Sequence record: MT446415.1
DNA: 64,000 bases
Strand: one strand, 5' to 3'
Origin: Escherichia virus TH44
A program made the translations under genes and the position numbers. Below, in pieces: positions 1,602 to 30,907 of the stretch (position 1 is its first letter; every line of letters starts with the position of its first letter). Below the pieces are notes generated by a model. That model was not told where the DNA came from and did not search any database. It saw nothing but the letters and a program-made list of their open reading frames with translations.

Positions 1602-3548
1602 TTATAGTGTAATTGGTTCAAGGTCAATCTTTGTATATTGCGGACGAAGGTCATTCTCAAATACAATCAGTGAACCATCTTGCGTGTATATATTATCTTG
1701 GTTAGGACTTGCATAAAGTTCGATTGATTGAACTTCAAAGCGCTCGGAGGTCAATCCAATCGCGGCGATATCCCAAAAAATATAATCAGAGTAATAGTCA
1801 ATTTCGCCAATTGCGTAATAAACTGTTTGGTCAGCCGGAGCTTCCATTTTATTAAAGTCATCTTGCAGGTAAGGCTGGATGTTTACATTTTCAATAACAT
1901 CGCCTGGACGGAATGGACCAATTACCATTTTACCATCGCCACGAGAATCTTTATCAGTTGCAACAATGCGAACGTTATAGGCTTCACCCGTGGTCGGAAC
2001 AAATTCAAATTCACTTGATTCGACTGAACGGTTGCCATACTGGTTATAGTATTTAATGCCGGATTCTGGAGTCTTAAAGAAGTTCAGGACTTCACGCACC
2101 ATCGAAATGGTTGCAGATGAACCAAGAATACTATGGTCAGTATTATCCACATACGTAAGCATTTTTGACTTAGCAAAACTTCTGTTAAAGATTTCAACTT
2201 CATCGATATAATAACGGTCAATCTGATTAATGATTTGTGCTTGCAGCCATTGTTCAGATTCTTGTAATTTGTTCAGCGCATAAGATACTTTGATATTATG
2301 TTTAAGGAACAAATAATCCGGAGAAATTACCGAGGGTGTAATTGTTGATACGTTGAACTCGCTAAGGTAGTTCTGGATGTCCTCACGCTGCACTGCAGTG
2401 AGATACAAGCCCGATTTAGGCTTAACTGATATAAACGCATACCCAGGCTTATTTGCGTCTGTAAACGTCTGTACGGCTTGCACGATTGAACCAAATCTTT
2501 CAGATACGAAGGTATCATAATCTGTTCCGGTGACAGCACGCATCTGCGCTTCACGTTTAACAACAGCCAGTTCACGGATACGTTCGATATCTTCTGGGTC
2601 ACCACCGCCATCGGCACCGACATAATCAGGGTCGTTGTTGTAGTTTTCAGTAATTTTATCCACTGTGATATAAGACAAAGTATCGGCATAACTGAAATCA
2701 ACAGCGCCGTTTGCATCTGCCCCTGAGGTACGAAGATATTCAATAACAATTGTCGAATCTTGCACCGGTTTGAGACCGCCAATATAGTTGGCTTCCATAA
2801 CGCCACCGGCTACGGATTTGGTGGATTCACCTTCACCGAAGAAAAATTCAGTATAGCCATCGATTGTTTCACGCATATAAAATATGGTGGAAGTCGAACC
2901 AGCATGGACCATTGATTTGTTCGTCCAGTCAACCCACTCAACACCGTTCACATATAACTTAACTTCTTTGCGGTCGATATCCGGGTCGCGAATAAGAATA
3001 GGTTGTTTCGGGTCATATAAAAGTTCTGTACGAATAATACGGCCCTGGGCCAGAGATACAATCGGAAGGTATTGGTTGTTAATATCTTTAACCGCAATAA
3101 CGTTTTCCGTGGTAACAAAAACATAAGGGTCAGCTGATGTATCACGAGCATATGCCAGGAATTTAGTTCCTCGTGGGATTTCAATATTCGATGGTTGCAG
3201 AGCATGAGAACATGTCAACATAACCGAAGTCTTTGCGGCCGAACGTGAAGATGGAAGATATCCATTATCCTGTGCCGCCTGAACAACCGAAGACCTTAAG
3301 TTTGCAGTTCCGATAAATGATTCATAAACTGCTGTATTAGCAAACTGCTGCATATAAAGTGTATTATACGCAAGCATGTCAATCAGGATATTCATTCGCG
3401 AACCTACGAAATCATAATCCTTAAATTCATCCTGGCTTGATAACCAGTCGATGATGTTCTTTTTAATTTCTTCAAACGTAGCTCCCACAAATACTTTTGG
3501 GATAGCGTTAACGGTTCTTGTTAATTGGTAATTCGTAGGAGTAGCCAT
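1602..3548 (-). CDS. 6: baseplate wedge protein gp6
   Basis: 648 aa; N-terminus MATPTNYQLTRTVNAIP...DYDFVGSRMNIL matches remembered T4 gp6; T4 gene order. Confidence 0.9.
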   Translation of the reverse strand: MATPTNYQLTRTVNAIPKVFVGATFEEIKKNIIDWLSSQDEFKDYDFVGSRMNILIDMLAYNTLYMQQFANTAVYESFIGTANLRSSVVQAAQDNGYLPSSRSAAKTSVMLTCSHALQPSNIEIPRGTKFLAYARDTSADPYVFVTTENVIAVKDINNQYLPIVSLAQGRIIRTELLYDPKQPILIRDPDIDRKEVKLYVNGVEWVDWTNKSMVHAGSTSTIFYMRETIDGYTEFFFGEGESTKSVAGGVMEANYIGGLKPVQDSTIVIEYLRTSGADANGAVDFSYADTLSYITVDKITENYNNDPDYVGADGGGDPEDIERIRELAVVKREAQMRAVTGTDYDTFVSERFGSIVQAVQTFTDANKPGYAFISVKPKSGLYLTAVQREDIQNYLSEFNVSTITPSVISPDYLFLKHNIKVSYALNKLQESEQWLQAQIINQIDRYYIDEVEIFNRSFAKSKMLTYVDNTDHSILGSSATISMVREVLNFFKTPESGIKYYNQYGNRSVESSEFEFVPTTGEAYNVRIVATDKDSRGDGKMVIGPFRPGDVIENVNIQPYLQDDFNKMEAPADQTVYYAIGEIDYYSDYIFWDIAAIGLTSERFEVQSIELYASPNQDNIYTQDGSLIVFENDLRPQYTKIDLEPITL

Positions 3549-4381: not shown

Positions 4382-6124
4382 TTAGCCAATGTCAATCCTC
4401 GAACCATCAATAGTATATTGACCAGATGCAATAGAACTCATTGTTGACATTGTTTCGGACCAATTGCCAGCCACGGTCATATCAACGTTTCCATTAACGG
4501 ACCATTTGACATTACCATTTACCGTATAATCATGGTTACCTTCGACAAGAGTTTTTGCGTCACCTTTAACAGTTATTTCAGCATTACCTTCGACCAAAAT
4601 ACTTACATTACCTTTGACAATAATTGTACCGTCACCTTCAATGGTTTTGGTTTCATTCCCACGAATATGAATGCTTTCGTTTCCATCGGTCTGACGACGA
4701 ACGTTAGCCATATTATAATAGGTTTCATCACCACCAACGTTGACTTTATTATTACCGCCAACGTAAGTACTCGAATCGCCCTGGGTCATATAATAACCAT
4801 CAGCCACTGTCTTCGAAGTCTTACGACCGTCTGGTGCAACTTCCTCATAGGAACCGGTTGGATGAATCAGTCGATAACGTTCTTGTCCAGGGGTGTTATC
4901 AAATTCCTGAATATGACCGCCTTCAGTTTGCATTGTCTGCACGTAAGGATATTCGCCCTTGTAACTGGATTCTGGCTCTTTAAACAGAATCCTCGTATCT
5001 TCTGGAGTCCATGGGTCGGCTGGGTCAGAATTTGCAGGGGCTGCAAAGGTTTGAATCATCCTATATGAACGCCCTTTAAATGACCTTTCTTTAGGGGCCA
5101 TAATACCATATGATTCCATGTTACCTGTAAGGATAATCATTGATACCCTTGATGCACGGCCTTTAGTTTGGTTAAACCATACAGAATCACGAGCGGCATC
5201 AAATGCTTTCTTATAATCTCCAGCTAACATTGCAGCGAGCATCGTTTTAAATTTAGCAAGCCCACCCAATCCCATTTGGAAAGCCATGTTTTCAAGAGCC
5301 ATTTGTCTCGAACGGTTTTCTTTATTGTAAACTGGACCCACGACACTATGTCGACCTATATCGTTTTGCACTTTTTTAAGGTCTTCTTGGAATAATTTAG
5401 AGGCCTCGTCCATTGATATTGCACCAGGGTTACCTTTAACTTCACGGCCTATTTGATTAGATAATATTTTGTTTATCTGATTCATATCTCTAATAGGTTG
5501 TGGTGCAATCAAGTGTCCTATACCTATAGTAGGATAACCTTCGGTGTCCCAATATACTTTCAAACGAAGACCTTCATCACGGTGAAGCATATTTTCAATT
5601 GTGAAATTAGGATTATCATCTGGCTTAACTTGACTCAAATCAAGGCCATCGGGGTTAATACCAAGGTCAAGGTTTGCATCCTGAATTACGTTCGAAGTTG
5701 CATCATAACCGACCTCACCGCCTCGGTTGAGCGCAGCAGCATCATTACCTACATAAAGTGGATATTGTCCTGTGGGGTCAGAGAAGCCTTCGTTGGGATT
5801 TGCTTTTTGTCTTGAGGCTGAACCATATGTACCAAGGACTAATCCGTTAAGTTTCCACTTGTCTAAAAAGTGACCATACACTTGAGTCCCTGGCACCATA
5901 CCGGTCATTGCAGTTTGAATACCCGAAACTGATGCAGATGATGTTGGCATCAATACAGACATCCATGGCAGGTCTTCAGTTCTGATACCTTTTACAGGCC
6001 CTTGCGATTTCTCATATGGATGCATACCCCATACACGGACACGGACTCGACCTTGTTGAAGTGGGTCCATTCGGTCTTCGACAACACCGACGAACCAACT
6101 TACACTATCTGACATATTAATCAT
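4382..6124 (-). CDS. 5: baseplate hub and tail lysozyme gp5
   Basis: 580 aa; internal lysozyme motif GYPTIGIGHLI; C-terminal VxGxxxxx beta-helix repeats; start overlaps gene 53 stop (ATGA). Confidence 0.93.
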   Translation of the reverse strand: MINMSDSVSWFVGVVEDRMDPLQQGRVRVRVWGMHPYEKSQGPVKGIRTEDLPWMSVLMPTSSASVSGIQTAMTGMVPGTQVYGHFLDKWKLNGLVLGTYGSASRQKANPNEGFSDPTGQYPLYVGNDAAALNRGGEVGYDATSNVIQDANLDLGINPDGLDLSQVKPDDNPNFTIENMLHRDEGLRLKVYWDTEGYPTIGIGHLIAPQPIRDMNQINKILSNQIGREVKGNPGAISMDEASKLFQEDLKKVQNDIGRHSVVGPVYNKENRSRQMALENMAFQMGLGGLAKFKTMLAAMLAGDYKKAFDAARDSVWFNQTKGRASRVSMIILTGNMESYGIMAPKERSFKGRSYRMIQTFAAPANSDPADPWTPEDTRILFKEPESSYKGEYPYVQTMQTEGGHIQEFDNTPGQERYRLIHPTGSYEEVAPDGRKTSKTVADGYYMTQGDSSTYVGGNNKVNVGGDETYYNMANVRRQTDGNESIHIRGNETKTIEGDGTIIVKGNVSILVEGNAEITVKGDAKTLVEGNHDYTVNGNVKWSVNGNVDMTVAGNWSETMSTMSSIASGQYTIDGSRIDIG

Positions 6125-23494: not shown

Positions 23495-23986
23495 ATGAAT
23501 ATATTCGAAATGTTACGCATAGATGAAGGTTGTAAGTTGGATTTGTATAAAGATACCGAAGGCTATTGGACCATTGGTATCGGGCAATTGATAACTAAGA
23601 ACCCATCAAAAGATGTAGCTCGTGCTGAGCTCGACAAGCTTATGGGTCGCGTCTGTAATGGTCGCATAACCCAGCACGAAGCTGAAACATTGTTTAATCG
23701 TTCGGTCGAAAAAGCTAAAGCCGGAATCTTGAGGCATCCTGTCTTAAAACCTGTTTATGATGTACTGGATGAAGTTCGTCGTTGTGCGCTCATTAATATG
23801 GTATTCCAGATGGGTGTTGCCGGGGTAGCTGGTTTTCCTAAGGGTATGCGATTGCTGAAGGCTAAATCATGGGAAGCCGCTGCTAAGGAACTAGCTGACT
23901 CAAGATGGTATAAAGTCCAGACTCCGAATAGGGCAAAACGAGTTATCGAAACTTTCCGTACTGGAACTTTTGACGCATACAAATAA
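23495..23986 (+). CDS. e: endolysin (T4 lysozyme)
   Basis: 163 aa; [12 protein letters not shown]...[18 protein letters not shown]...[14 protein letters not shown], near-identical pattern to T4 gpe. Confidence 0.97.
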
Positions 23987-27409: not shown

Positions 27410-27410
<1 letters not shown>

Positions 27411-27439
27411 TGTACAAGCAGGTTGAAATGAGTTATGAT
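27410..27439 (+). promoter_or_regulatory. early-promoter cassette (gtgtac-N18-tatgat)
   Basis: Leader tatcccatcaaacaaaaggagataatcATG. Confidence 0.5.
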
Positions 27440-27466
27440 TATCCCATCAAACAAAAGGAGATAATC

Positions 27467-27925
27467 ATGACTACTATCGATTCAAGTGTTTACATTCGCC
27501 GCAATAAACTTCGTCGCATTTTTGAAACGGAGTTCCTCAAAATTAATAATGCTATCAACAAGGCTTGTAAAGAAGCAGGCCTTGAAGCATTCTTCATTAA
27601 GTACAGTCCACACCTGTTGGACCGTGCAATCCAACGTGAAATTGATGAACAATATGTTTTTGACTTGTTTGGAAAAATCACACCACATGTAAAAGAAATC
27701 GTTGAATTCCTGGAGATGAAACCACTCCCGGAAGTTGAAGCACAAATTGACCCGAATGTGAACTATCGTCCACTTCGTCTGGAAATCACAGACAAGAACC
27801 TGTGGTTAGGAATGACAGTTAACCCAGCTCTTCCTGGGAAGTCTCCGACCATGTGTTGTCGTATGGCGTTTGTTAACTCTAATCGTCTGGAAGGAAAAAT
27901 TAGCACAAAAGTGATTTATATCTAA
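27467..27925 (+). CDS. hypothetical protein
   Basis: 152 aa from ATG after aaggag. Confidence 0.6.
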   Translation: MTTIDSSVYIRRNKLRRIFETEFLKINNAINKACKEAGLEAFFIKYSPHLLDRAIQREIDEQYVFDLFGKITPHVKEIVEFLEMKPLPEVEAQIDPNVNYRPLRLEITDKNLWLGMTVNPALPGKSPTMCCRMAFVNSNRLEGKISTKVIYI

Positions 27926-27935
27926 TGGGGAATTC

Positions 27936-28478
27936 ATGAAAAAAGTAATCGCCACCTTACTATTGACAGTTAGTATGTCTGCCCATAGCGTAGAGCCTAC
28001 TTTCAGTAATGAACAAATGGGGAACCTCCAATATGCTTATGCGTTTGGAGAACAGTTCCAGAAAAATGGTAAGTACAAAGAAAATCCGCACCAACATAAT
28101 GGTTTGGGATATATCATGGCTGGTTTAGCCTGGCAGGAAAGTTCTGCTGGGATTAATACTGGATTAAATAAAGATAAGCATCATGCATATGGTATATTCC
28201 AAAATTATCTTCCAACCGTGCGCGAACGCGTGAAACAGGTTGGGTGGACAATGACAGATAAAGAAATAATCAAGATGATAAGCAAGAGAGAGAACAGTGC
28301 ACGCTGGGCTTATATTGAGCTTTCATACTGGTTGAATATTCATAAGGGGGATATAAGGAAAACACTATCATCATATAACGCAGGGTGGAATGTGAAAGCT
28401 GGTAATACGTATGCTTCACAGGTCCTAGAAAAAGCTAACTACTTAAAATCACGAGGCCTATTAAAAACGGTGGATTAA
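27936..28478 (+). CDS. secreted lytic-transglycosylase-like (SLT-domain) protein
   Basis: N-terminal signal peptide MKKVIATLLLTVSMSAHS; motifs AWQESSAG, GIFQ and SSYNAGWN resemble SLT-domain motifs. Confidence 0.6.
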   Translation: MKKVIATLLLTVSMSAHSVEPTFSNEQMGNLQYAYAFGEQFQKNGKYKENPHQHNGLGYIMAGLAWQESSAGINTGLNKDKHHAYGIFQNYLPTVRERVKQVGWTMTDKEIIKMISKRENSARWAYIELSYWLNIHKGDIRKTLSSYNAGWNVKAGNTYASQVLEKANYLKSRGLLKTVD

Positions 28479-28480
28479 AA

Positions 28481-28840
28481 ATGGTAAGAGTTATCACTTT
28501 AGCCATAGGGTTAGTATTCAGCACGGGAGGAATAGCTTCAGTACAGAGCGACGACAACAACAGCATCATAGAATATGCAACGAGGACGGCTAAAGATTAT
28601 TGCGCAGCAAGCAATGTGGATTGTGTAATCCAGTTCAGTGCCAAGCTCACCGCAGCCTATAAAGATGGCCAAAATGATGTTGAACATACGCTTTTGAAAA
28701 AGAATGTATTATCCAACAAATATGAAAAGAAACTATTTGAAATGGATTGCATTCTGTCAAGTGCAAAATATAAGGCGGCCTGCACCAGTATGGTTGACAG
28801 GTTAGTGGATTCATATAATAGAGGATTGAACTCTAAATGA
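28481..28840 (+). CDS. secreted small Cys-containing protein
   Basis: Signal-peptide-like N-terminus MVRVITLAIGLVFSTGGIASVQS; four Cys. Confidence 0.55.
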   Translation: MVRVITLAIGLVFSTGGIASVQSDDNNSIIEYATRTAKDYCAASNVDCVIQFSAKLTAAYKDGQNDVEHTLLKKNVLSNKYEKKLFEMDCILSSAKYKAACTSMVDRLVDSYNRGLNSK

Positions 28841-29310
28841 TTACCCAGTATATTAAGGGCGATATCGTCGCCCTCTTTCTTCAAGGCAATATTATTGCAC
28901 ATGGTTGTAACTGCTTTCACACAATGGGTTCTGGCGTAGCTGGGCAGCTGGCGAAGGCTTATCCAAAAGTTTTAGAAATAGATAAAACCACTACTGAATA
29001 CGGTTCTCGTGATAAATTAGGCGATATGTCTATTGTTTTTAAACATAAGACTACAGGTTTTGGCATGTGCTATAACTTGTATACGCAATACGAACCAGGC
29101 CCTAATCTTGATTATGGTGCTTTAGTAAATTGTATGATAGAATTAAATCTACAAGCAGAAACCCTTTTGTTTAAACCGGTAATTTATATTCCTCGTATTG
29201 GTTGCGGTATTGCAGGCGGAGATTGGGATAAGGTTTCTAAATTAATCGACATGTTTACTCCTGACATTGATTTAATAGTGGTGGATTATGAGCCAAGCCC
29301 GAATTCTTAA
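28837..29310 (+). CDS. macro-domain-like protein (putative ADP-ribose binding/hydrolase)
   Basis: Motifs HGCNCFHTMGSGVAGQ and PRIGCGIAGGDW resemble the two glycine-rich signatures of macrodomains. Confidence 0.6.
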   Translation: MITQYIKGDIVALFLQGNIIAHGCNCFHTMGSGVAGQLAKAYPKVLEIDKTTTEYGSRDKLGDMSIVFKHKTTGFGMCYNLYTQYEPGPNLDYGALVNCMIELNLQAETLLFKPVIYIPRIGCGIAGGDWDKVSKLIDMFTPDIDLIVVDYEPSPNS

Positions 29311-29685: not shown

Positions 29686-30258
29686 ATGGCGAGTTTAATT
29701 TATCATTACGCAGCAATGAATGCAGGCAAAACAGCTTCATTGCTGACTGCAGCTTATTCCTATAAAGAGCGTGGAATGAGTGTGCTTTTGCTAAAACCTG
29801 TTATTGATAATCGGGACTCGGAAGGCGAAATTAAATCACGCATCGGTATTAGCCAGGAAGCAAACCTGGTGACGGCCGACATGAACCTGTTTGAATTCTA
29901 TAAATGGGCCGAGTCTCAAAAGGATATCCATTGTGTCCTGGTCGATGAAGCTCAATTTTTGTTACCAGAGCAAATTGACCAGTTAGCTCAAGTGGTTGAT
30001 AATTACAATATCCCCGTTATGTGTTACGGGTTAAGAACAGATTTTCGGGGCCAATTATTTCCCGGTTCGGCTAGACTTCTGGCTATTTCGGATAAACTGG
30101 TTGAATTAAAGGGCGTCTGTCATTGCGGTCGGAAAGCAACCATGACCGCTCGAGTAATCGACGGTGCTGCTGTAAAGGACGGCGAGCAAGTATTGGTCGG
30201 TGGGAATGAATCGTACGTATCTTTATGCAGAAAACATTGGCTCGAATTGACAAGCTGA
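29686..30258 (+). CDS. tk: thymidine kinase
   Basis: 190 aa; MASLIYHYAAMNAGKTASLL...VDEAQF...CHCGRKATMTAR...LCRKHW, very close to T4 Tk. Confidence 0.95.
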   Translation: MASLIYHYAAMNAGKTASLLTAAYSYKERGMSVLLLKPVIDNRDSEGEIKSRIGISQEANLVTADMNLFEFYKWAESQKDIHCVLVDEAQFLLPEQIDQLAQVVDNYNIPVMCYGLRTDFRGQLFPGSARLLAISDKLVELKGVCHCGRKATMTARVIDGAAVKDGEQVLVGGNESYVSLCRKHWLELTS

Positions 30259-30265
30259 GGTTCGC

Positions 30266-30541
30266 ATGGTATACAAGGTTTGGACGTATATCTCTATTTT
30301 GATATTCCTGGTTTTGGTTTTTGTTCCGATGCAACAAGACCAGGAAAGGTATGAGCGCGAAGTTGAAATTGTTGCAAGTACCTATCACTCGTTCAACAAA
30401 GAGTGCCCCAATAAAAACGGAATAAGCCTGCAACAAGCATACTATTTGTCAACGGTCACCAGCCCAAAACAACGGGTCTGGGTTGAACGTAATTTTGCAA
30501 GTTTATTTTCAGAGTACTGCTTTAATTTTAAACGTCTATAA
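30266..30541 (+). CDS. membrane-anchored small protein
   Basis: N-terminal TM helix. Confidence 0.55.
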   Translation: MVYKVWTYISILIFLVLVFVPMQQDQERYEREVEIVASTYHSFNKECPNKNGISLQQAYYLSTVTSPKQRVWVERNFASLFSEYCFNFKRL

Positions 30542-30613: not shown

Positions 30614-30907
30614 ATGGACCTTATTCGAGGACTTTCATTAAGTCTAATAATCCTGGGCTGTTTAGGCCCAAATCTGTCCTCTGCAACAGAGGGGAAGTTT
30701 ACCCAATATGCAGATAGTGCGATGAAGATTTATTCGCAATTCAAAGAACCAAGCGTGCACCAATCCGAACAGTTCTGGGCGTTTATCAAGACTGAATGGA
30801 ACAACAAAAGCCAATGCGAAACAGAAATCACCTGCAAAAGCGATGGTAAAGCTGCGGCGAGAGAGTACGCTAAATTAATGAAGGTAAAATTGGAAGATGA
30901 AATTTGA
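30614..30907 (+). CDS. rI: lysis-inhibition regulator RI-like protein
   Basis: 97 aa with signal-anchor-like N-terminus; ...SEQFWAFIKTEW...YAKLMKVKLEDEI resembles remembered T4 RI; next to tk. Confidence 0.6.
   Translation: MDLIRGLSLSLIILGCLGPNLSSATEGKFTQYADSAMKIYSQFKEPSVHQSEQFWAFIKTEWNNKSQCETEITCKSDGKAAAREYAKLMKVKLEDEI

Follow-up and report, generated by a model that had tools for sequence, protein, structure and literature searches.

Among the closest described systems are the specialised lytic transglycosylases EtgA, IagB and IpgF of type III secretion systems, which, like the phage protein Vs.1, have about 150-180 amino acids (aa) and consist of one domain with an N-terminal signal peptide. 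EtgA belongs to the type III system of enteropathogenic Escherichia coli (EPEC); its catalytic residue is E42, its residues Q65, Y116, N117 and G119 are fully or almost fully conserved, and it is controlled by a small helical partner, EscI (PMC10880428). For phage T4, a similarity of gene vs.1 to the SLT domain of lytic transglycosylases was reported by Nolan et al. 2006, citing an earlier (2003) T4 genome review, and the match was termed “marginally significant” at that time; the gene vs, which follows vs.1, is annotated as a valyl-tRNA synthetase (ValRS) modifier. Here we describe the counterparts of both genes in a stretch of 64,000 nucleotides (nt) of Escherichia virus TH44 (sequence record MT446415.1), which is called the window below. 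In our reading, to which we give a probability of about 0.7, Vs.1 would be an exported accessory transglycosylase and not the main lysis enzyme, and Vs would be an exported four-helix protein.

The window belongs to a T4-like Gaprivervirus phage with about 98% identity to Shigella phage SP18, and the region studied is 97-99% identical (megablast) to Gaprivervirus phages, e.g. SP18 and Escherichia phage P479. Two open reading frames (ORFs) on the plus strand, which an earlier note on this DNA had singled out, lie where that note placed them, and their counterparts in SP18 and T4 are annotated as vs.1 and vs. They are orthologues of these two T4 genes:

27936..28478, plus strand: vs.1 orthologue, 180 aa, the precursor of what is predicted to be an exported lytic transglycosylase with a single domain; T4 Vs.1 is UniProt Y06E_BPT4 (P13311).
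28481..28840, plus strand: vs orthologue, 119 aa; T4 Vs, the “valyl-tRNA synthetase modifier”, is UniProt VS_BPT4 (P13310).

The window Vs.1 is matched to phrog_600 (unknown function; E=2.6e-67) and the window Vs to phrog_1256 (valyl-tRNA synthetase modifier; E=2.3e-32). Vs.1 is 65% and Vs about 45% identical between T4 and the window, with the same order, signal peptides, motifs and Cys pattern, and the gene order regB - vs.1 - vs - tk.4 - ... - tk - ... - rI is common to the window, SP18 and T4. The overlap of 8 nt between vs.1 and vs in T4 is replaced by a gap of 2 nt in the window. The second ORF, left unnamed in the earlier note, is thus the named T4 gene vs, and the putative third murein enzyme that the note had found “unexpected” is no surprise, because the two ORFs are conserved T4 genes. 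Many homologues already carry GenBank- or UniProt-derived names such as “SLT domain-containing protein” and “lytic transglycosylase domain-containing protein”. Since the SLT similarity has been published and stands in many records, it was already known at the level of annotation; what is added here is firm support from the fold and the active site, the breadth of the family, the tight coupling of vs.1 and vs, and a comparative case for the export of Vs.

The motifs AWQESSAG, GIFQ and SSYNAGWN, in which the earlier note had seen a resemblance to SLT-type enzymes, are all present in the window Vs.1, together with a helix that is specific to its family:

28002..28049, plus strand: family-specific N-terminal helix FSNEQMGNLQYAYAFG, residues 23-38, with invariant Q27, outside the Pfam SLT match.
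28128..28151, plus strand: motif I, AWQESSAG, residues 65-72, containing Glu68 (gaa at 28137-28139) as the predicted catalytic residue.
28191..28202, plus strand: motif II, GIFQ, residues 86-89, with G86 and Q89 invariant.
28368..28391, plus strand: motif III, SSYNAGWN, residues 145-152, with Y147, N148 and G150 invariant.

Conservation was read from two alignments, A1 (32 Vs.1 homologues, 42-78% identity) and A4 (40 distant representatives of the family, 25-49% identity, picked from the matches among 1.8 billion proteins searched). Six residues (E68, G86, Q89, Y147, N148 and G150) are invariant in A1, and three of them (E68, Y147 and G150) are still invariant in A4, while S146 and A149 of motif III already vary in A1. 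The E68-S69 motif is invariant or near-invariant in both alignments and lies within the helix formed by residues 58-74 in an AlphaFold2 model. Besides, Q27 is invariant and G38 near-invariant in both A1 and A4; the model has a helix at 25-38, and the Pfam SLT match spans only residues 60-154. A 20-residue insertion is the other hallmark of the family. Residues E68, Q89, Y147, N148 and G150 of Vs.1 correspond to E42, Q65, Y116, N117 and G119 of EtgA, so that the active-site set E, Q and Y-N-x-G is shared by the two proteins.

Profile searches point to the same family. The Pfam SLT profile (PF01464) is matched by 31 of the 32 close homologues at E<=1 (best 1.3e-7) and by 25 of the 40 distant representatives at E<=0.01 (best 2.2e-10). 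When the A4 profile was run against the PDB sequences, EtgA was found at E=1.4e-7, with AIAWqES paired with AIAWNES; the A1 profile gave only chance-level matches (goose lysozyme, E=1.5), a single-sequence search of solved structures with the homologue P0077 found nothing relevant, and neither Vs.1 nor Vs had a match in NCBIfam. The model of Vs.1, built from the alignment of 32 sequences, has a predicted local distance difference test score (pLDDT) of 86 and a predicted template modelling score (pTM) of 0.80, and it adopts the lysozyme-like alpha-helical fold of family-1 transglycosylases. Its top Foldseek matches in the PDB are all transglycosylases or g-type lysozymes, with probabilities up to 0.99. 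With this fold, three family-1 motifs, the SLT matches of the homologues and the profile match to EtgA, the SLT-like character that the earlier note had proposed for the first ORF is borne out. As judged from alignments and model, the family and the fold are clearly of SLT type, and the assignment of the window protein taken alone is marginal.

Vs.1 differs from EtgA in several respects. It has an Ala in place of D60, it lacks the EtgA disulfide (the window Vs.1 has no Cys at all), and it carries the extra helix with the invariant Gln27 and the 20-residue insertion. It is also a gene of lytic phages beside regB, vs, tk.4 and tk, with no secretion or pilus gene nearby. The Ala, A84, is found in at least 90% of the sequences in A1, at the position of EtgA D60 and lysozyme D52. 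Because this is the position of the second carboxylate, Ala84 favours transglycosylase chemistry over that of a muramidase; it is the sole hint that the reaction would be non-hydrolytic and give 1,6-anhydro-N-acetylmuramic acid (1,6-anhydro-MurNAc). To Slt70, MltC, MltD, MltE, MltF and goose-type lysozyme, the identity of Vs.1 is only 13-20%, and the superhelical, LysM and lipoprotein-anchor accessory parts of bacterial family-1 enzymes are missing from it.

Two other murein-active proteins are encoded in the window, as the earlier note had said, and both carry a domain of a family other than that of Vs.1:

4382-6124, minus strand: gp5, with a Pfam Phage_lysozyme domain.
23495-23986, plus strand: e (endolysin), with a Pfam Phage_lysozyme domain.

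In T4, gp5 and e are GH24 lysozymes, while Vs.1 is of another family and is encoded outside the baseplate and lysis modules. Unlike a lysis enzyme, T4 vs.1 is of the early RNA / middle protein class and non-essential, with e encoded separately. The phage muralytic proteins compared also included the virion transglycosylases T7 gp16 and phiKZ gp144 and the secreted and signal-anchor-release (SAR) endolysins. The last group shares an N-terminal export signal with Vs.1, as predicted for the latter; however, the hydrophobic core of Vs.1 has about 13 residues and is followed by AHS, which looks cleavable, whereas an SAR anchor would need a longer hydrophobic segment. With its small, single-domain architecture and signal peptide, Vs.1 resembles the specialised transglycosylases and not a holin-dependent endolysin.

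The export of Vs.1 is predicted from signal features, read by a heuristic for the n-, h- and c-regions, and from their conservation across the homologues:

27936..27989, plus strand: predicted Sec signal peptide of Vs.1, MKKVIATLLLTVSMSAHS, residues 1-18, likely cut between AHS and VEPT.

In every homologue of Vs.1 and Vs, one or two Lys/Arg at the N-terminus precede a hydrophobic stretch of 10-13 residues, after which positions -3/-1, at about 18-21, are taken by small residues. The features are kept in the Ackermannviridae, Felixounavirus, Pseudotevenvirus and Acinetobacter-phage versions of Vs.1, and the Sec-type signal claimed for the first ORF in the earlier note is thus a predicted property of the whole family. 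In both proteins the signal segment is less conserved than the mature part (identity 0.33 vs 0.54 for Vs.1; 0.48 vs 0.65 for Vs), as is expected of signal peptides.

Some records place the starts further downstream. In SP18, vs.1 (4576-5079) and vs (5124-5441; both in locus L001) are annotated from internal Met codons, the long forms beginning at 4537 and 5082, and in phage Ac42 vs.1 (1582-2019; locus L005) also begins at an internal Met, with the long form from about 1492; such annotations cut off the conserved signal peptides. If the internal Met codons were the true starts, as the annotated lengths have it (vs.1 167 aa and vs 105 aa in SP18, vs.1 145 aa in Ac42), these proteins would have no signal peptide and Vs.1 would be a cytoplasmic, holin-dependent second endolysin. 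We consider this highly improbable. The upstream in-frame extension is kept as a signal peptide in all homologues, including that of Ac42 (MKLKLIIAFVLTMICSTTFA before YNF); the long vs.1 ORF starts 10 nt past the regB stop with a G-rich Shine-Dalgarno-like sequence 6-9 nt before it, while the internal ATG has no such sequence; the long forms of Vs.1 and Vs are used in T4 and in records annotated by the Prokaryotic Genome Annotation Pipeline (PGAP); and T4 vs.1 is expressed early/middle rather than late, which speaks against a second endolysin. The internal starts of SP18 and Ac42 were rejected because the upstream signal peptide is conserved.

For Vs, the evidence comes from about 50 distinct sequences and from a model in which helices span residues 24-40, 46-66, 76-90 and 95-116:

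28481..28537, plus strand: predicted signal peptide of Vs, MVRVITLAIGLVFSTGGIA before S, residues 1-19, conserved in all full-length homologues.
28601..28624, plus strand: Cys pair 1, C41-x6-C48, on either side of the loop that joins helices 1 and 2; C-x5-6(10)-C is conserved.
28748..28783, plus strand: Cys pair 2, C90-x10-C101, likewise placed around the loop of the last two helices; C-x8-10-C is conserved.
28787..28828, plus strand: C-terminal motif SMVDRLVDSYNRGL, residues 103-116, invariant in enterobacterial Vs (alignment A3).

The signal and the pattern C-x5-6(10)-C ... C-x8-10-C are present in every full-length sequence, in keeping with the signal-peptide-like N-terminus and the four Cys (C41, C48, C90 and C101) that the earlier note had described. 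The C-terminal motif is looser in distant homologues ([LM]xxYxxGL). All 28 clusters of Vs homologues carry the domain PF26829 (ValRS_modifier). In the Enterobacter phages vB-EclM_KMB19, KKP_3262 and EcL8g, Vs opens with MKKLFVLLVVVALSGC followed by K, a canonical lipobox (ALSGC before K); this ORF lies at about 3049-3375 in loci L038-L040 and L057, and Vs of this clade is predicted to be a lipoprotein and not a soluble exported protein. Since orthologues of Vs alternate between signal-peptidase-I and lipoprotein signals, the switching of signal type is strong comparative evidence that Vs would act outside the cytoplasm. T4 Spackle, a small helical early protein with a signal peptide that inhibits the gp5 lysozyme in the periplasm, was considered as an analogue for Vs; no fold similarity of Vs to the known periplasmic lysozyme inhibitors Spackle, Ivy, PliG and MliC was found.

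The long-standing annotation places Vs elsewhere. A passage of PMC8076793, citing Muller & Marchin 1975, 1977, has T4 Vs bind the host ValRS. On this account Vs is cytoplasmic, its adjacency to vs.1 is ordinary T4 synteny, and its hydrophobic N-terminus is inefficient or otherwise used. We regard this as a serious competitor, though with the odds somewhat against it. The prediction from the signal, the lipobox clade and the two Cys pairs is export and not a cytoplasmic location: a signal peptide and two conserved Cys pairs at the loops of helical hairpins are found in every full-length Vs, the swap of signal type in the ALSGC clade is hard to explain unless Vs is exported, and full-length T4 Vs produced in the cytoplasm is insoluble. 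The mature T4 Vs would have a mass of 11.0 kDa; the purified ValRS-modifying factor was reportedly of about 10 kDa, which would agree with a cleaved protein.

The linkage between the two genes was surveyed in 80 IMG/VR loci, which were gathered with the Vs.1 family (A1) and whose ORFs were scored with the Vs.1 and Vs profiles. Vs is present in 61 of the 80 loci, and in 53 of these 61 the vs start lies between -8 and +7 nt from the vs.1 stop. The tight linkage includes a metagenomic contig and Acinetobacter phages, whose proteins have about 42% identity and which have no regB upstream. Among the loci with both genes, regB is directly upstream of vs.1 in 46 of 61, a high local synteny that suits a cytoplasmic Vs with a neighbour by mere gene order; tk.4 is adjacent in only 27. 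In Acinetobacter-type phages (L005 = Ac42, 2330-3302; L004, 4836-5847), two further small ORFs come after vs, their N-termini being of the signal-peptide or membrane-anchor type (e.g. MKYIFLLLAALSFPVLA before WE), and then the antiholin rI, so that vs.1 and vs stand first in a series of genes for proteins with predicted export. Such a series, closing with a periplasmic antiholin, argues against a cytoplasmic Vs.

The same linkage, with export predicted for both products, would also suit a periplasmic two-protein module, in which Vs is an activator, stabiliser, targeting factor or restraining inhibitor of Vs.1. The tight spacing holds even in the Acinetobacter phages that lack regB, T4 mutants of vs.1 and vs fall to similar read counts in liquid lysogeny broth (LB), and a small helical partner localises EtgA, the closest solved relative of Vs.1 by sequence, raises its activity 2-4-fold and stabilises it (PMC10880428). 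However, the transglycosylase occurs without Vs in 18 loci of Ackermannviridae-like contig size and one T4-like locus, as well as in Felixounavirus, Vs lies 0.5-1.2 kb downstream in 8-9 divergent Straboviridae loci, and the two genes differ in phenotype in M9 medium. We treat the module as a tentative idea, with about one chance in four of being right.

Fitness data from T4 bear on both questions. During infection T4 Vs.1 and Vs are both detected, in the class early RNA / middle protein (PMC9697503 supplement), and in the HIDEN-SEQ tables of transposon insertions both genes are non-essential, with 46 of 52 TA sites of vs.1 hit. The tables give the following values (padj, adjusted p):

Mean reads, liquid LB growth, K-12: vs.1 22.6; vs 26.6; regB 179, tk.4 290, vs.3 652.
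log2 fold change, LB to M9 glucose: vs.1 -0.87 (p 0.0055, padj 0.155); vs -2.19 (padj 0).
log2 fold change, K-12 to isolate CFE299: vs.1 -1.20 (padj 0.015); vs -1.04 (not significant).

In liquid LB, the transposon mutants of vs.1 and vs thus have about 7-25-fold fewer reads than the flanking genes. In minimal glucose medium, vs is the most depleted T4 gene, and a clean vs deletion plaques poorly there (transposon study). Both genes add to the fitness of T4, alike in rich liquid medium and unlike in minimal medium, and the values for CFE299 suggest that vs.1 is more important on a natural host strain. The need for vs in minimal glucose fits a role in aminoacylation under conditions in which amino acids have to be made by the cell; and because vs.1 is far less affected in M9, the two genes are not phenotypically equivalent, which favours the cytoplasmic Vs. 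A simple toxin/immunity pair of Vs.1 and Vs was rejected, because vs.1 insertions, which may also lower vs expression, leave the phage less fit instead of neutral.

Returning to Vs.1 as an exported accessory transglycosylase, the course of events would be as follows. Vs.1 would be made from early/middle transcripts as a precursor with a Sec signal peptide of 18 residues; its export and cleavage would yield a basic periplasmic protein of about 18.6 kDa (isoelectric point about 9.5). The mature protein would be a single-domain family-1 (SLT/GH23-type) lytic transglycosylase, in which Glu68 of the E-S motif would serve as the single acid/base and the bond of MurNAc-beta-1,4-N-acetylglucosamine would be cut without hydrolysis, leaving a 1,6-anhydro-MurNAc end. 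Vs, probably coupled translationally to vs.1, would be exported as a protein of four helices and about 11 kDa, its two helical hairpins each stapled by a disulfide. From sequence, model and T4 data, it is most likely that Vs.1 remodels or weakens the murein of the infected cell as an accessory fitness factor. Among the roles that the earlier note had suggested (superinfection exclusion, lysis timing or envelope remodelling), which are all candidates, the present data do not discriminate.

Several points weigh against this reading. In the SLT profile search that the earlier note had proposed, the family and the fold came out as SLT, but the window protein alone scored 16.0 bits (E=0.0088), below the gathering threshold of 21.3 bits, and its single-sequence search of solved structures gave no significant match. 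The Foldseek E-values of the model are weak (0.07-0.5), insertions in vs.1 may be polar on vs and so affect the fitness data, and no biochemical test of any Vs.1-family member was found in the searchable literature. Besides, a murein cutter exported early should endanger the infected cell, and its activity would therefore have to be weak, regulated or locally confined. Vs.1 would have to stay harmless for at least 20 min, and its regulation by the co-translated Vs would be an attractive possibility, by analogy with EtgA, which EscI activates and stabilises.

Harmlessness early in infection would be simpler if Vs.1 were inactive. The protein might be catalytically dead or a non-enzymatic murein binder, such as a sensor or a decoy, and the sub-threshold Pfam score as well as the low-confidence loop after the catalytic motif (residues 73-79, pLDDT below 50) could be taken in this sense. 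Yet neither the catalytic Glu nor the other residues of the active site vary among homologues of 25-78% identity, and they match the EtgA set, while pseudo-enzymes usually lose such residues, which makes a dead enzyme quite improbable to us.

The family of Vs.1 is broad. Phage records with a homologue number 2,082 and come from several families, and homologues were also found in 475 clusters at 50% identity; a distant member has a phage-like gene context, and a tblastn search against plasmids found no Vs.1 homologue. Vs.1-family transglycosylases with signal peptides are seen in Salmonella phage Mansal (Ackermannviridae; L006, 1456-2073), in Escherichia phage allfine (Felixounavirus; L007, 1501-2049), where the gene stands beside rIIB and near spanin genes and is annotated as “putative lysin”, and in Cronobacter phage leN (Pseudotevenvirus; L008, 1411-2058). 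Vs is not adjacent in any of these three, and their transglycosylases themselves contain 3-4 Cys. One protein, P0133 (2,679 aa), has 18 separate matches to the Vs.1 profile, all at profile positions ~122-166; either the C-terminal part of the domain is repeated in it, as it seems, or the matches are a compositional artefact.

The neighbouring genes of the window follow the T4 order:

27428..27925, plus strand: regB endoribonuclease, directly upstream of vs.1; Pfam REGB_T4 E=5.7e-72.
28837..29310, plus strand: tk.4 macrodomain protein, directly downstream, its ATG overlapped by the vs stop; Pfam Macro E=4.3e-8.
29686-30258: tk.
30614-30907: rI antiholin.

The mechanical regB ORF (27410-27925) opens at GTG 27410, with the RegB domain only from residue 23; translation probably begins at ATG 27428, the SP18 start, or at ATG 27467, which gives a T4-like length. 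The T4 tk.4 has been named adfM, an anti-DarTG2 factor (preprint, bioRxiv 10.1101/2025.11.20.689424). A terminator-like hairpin at 28856-28874 (AGGGCGATATCGTCGCCCT and then a T-rich run) lies 16 nt past the vs stop, within the start of tk.4, and might attenuate transcription between vs and tk.4; in the promoter/terminator scan, promoter-like sites were no commoner than in shuffled sequence. Between tk and rI, an ORF of 91 aa (30266-30541) contains two Cys and, in its N-terminal part, a strongly hydrophobic stretch (MVYKVWTYISILIFLVLVFVPM). No Pfam match was found for it, and it may encode a further envelope protein beside the antiholin.

In conclusion, the window genes are ordinary orthologues and their finding is a rediscovery of two known, annotated T4 genes, but Vs.1 is among the most widely conserved uncharacterised proteins of the large lytic phages of Gram-negative bacteria. 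If the reading is true, T4 would possess in Vs.1 a third murein enzyme, one that works by a different mechanism and is exported early instead of released at lysis, and the role of Vs.1 could illuminate how lysis, lysis inhibition or superinfection resistance is prepared in infected cells. The predicted export of Vs clashes with a cytoplasmic function assigned 50 years ago. A still wider proposal, which we think unlikely as a whole, is that the “ValRS modifier” family consists of periplasmic proteins, which would be exported, disulfide-bonded and in some phages lipoproteins, and which would form with Vs.1 a murein-remodelling module throughout the Straboviridae, with ValRS modification being secondary, post-lysis or the work of another ORF. 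If Vs is indeed exported, a textbook annotation that hundreds of genomes have inherited would need to be corrected.

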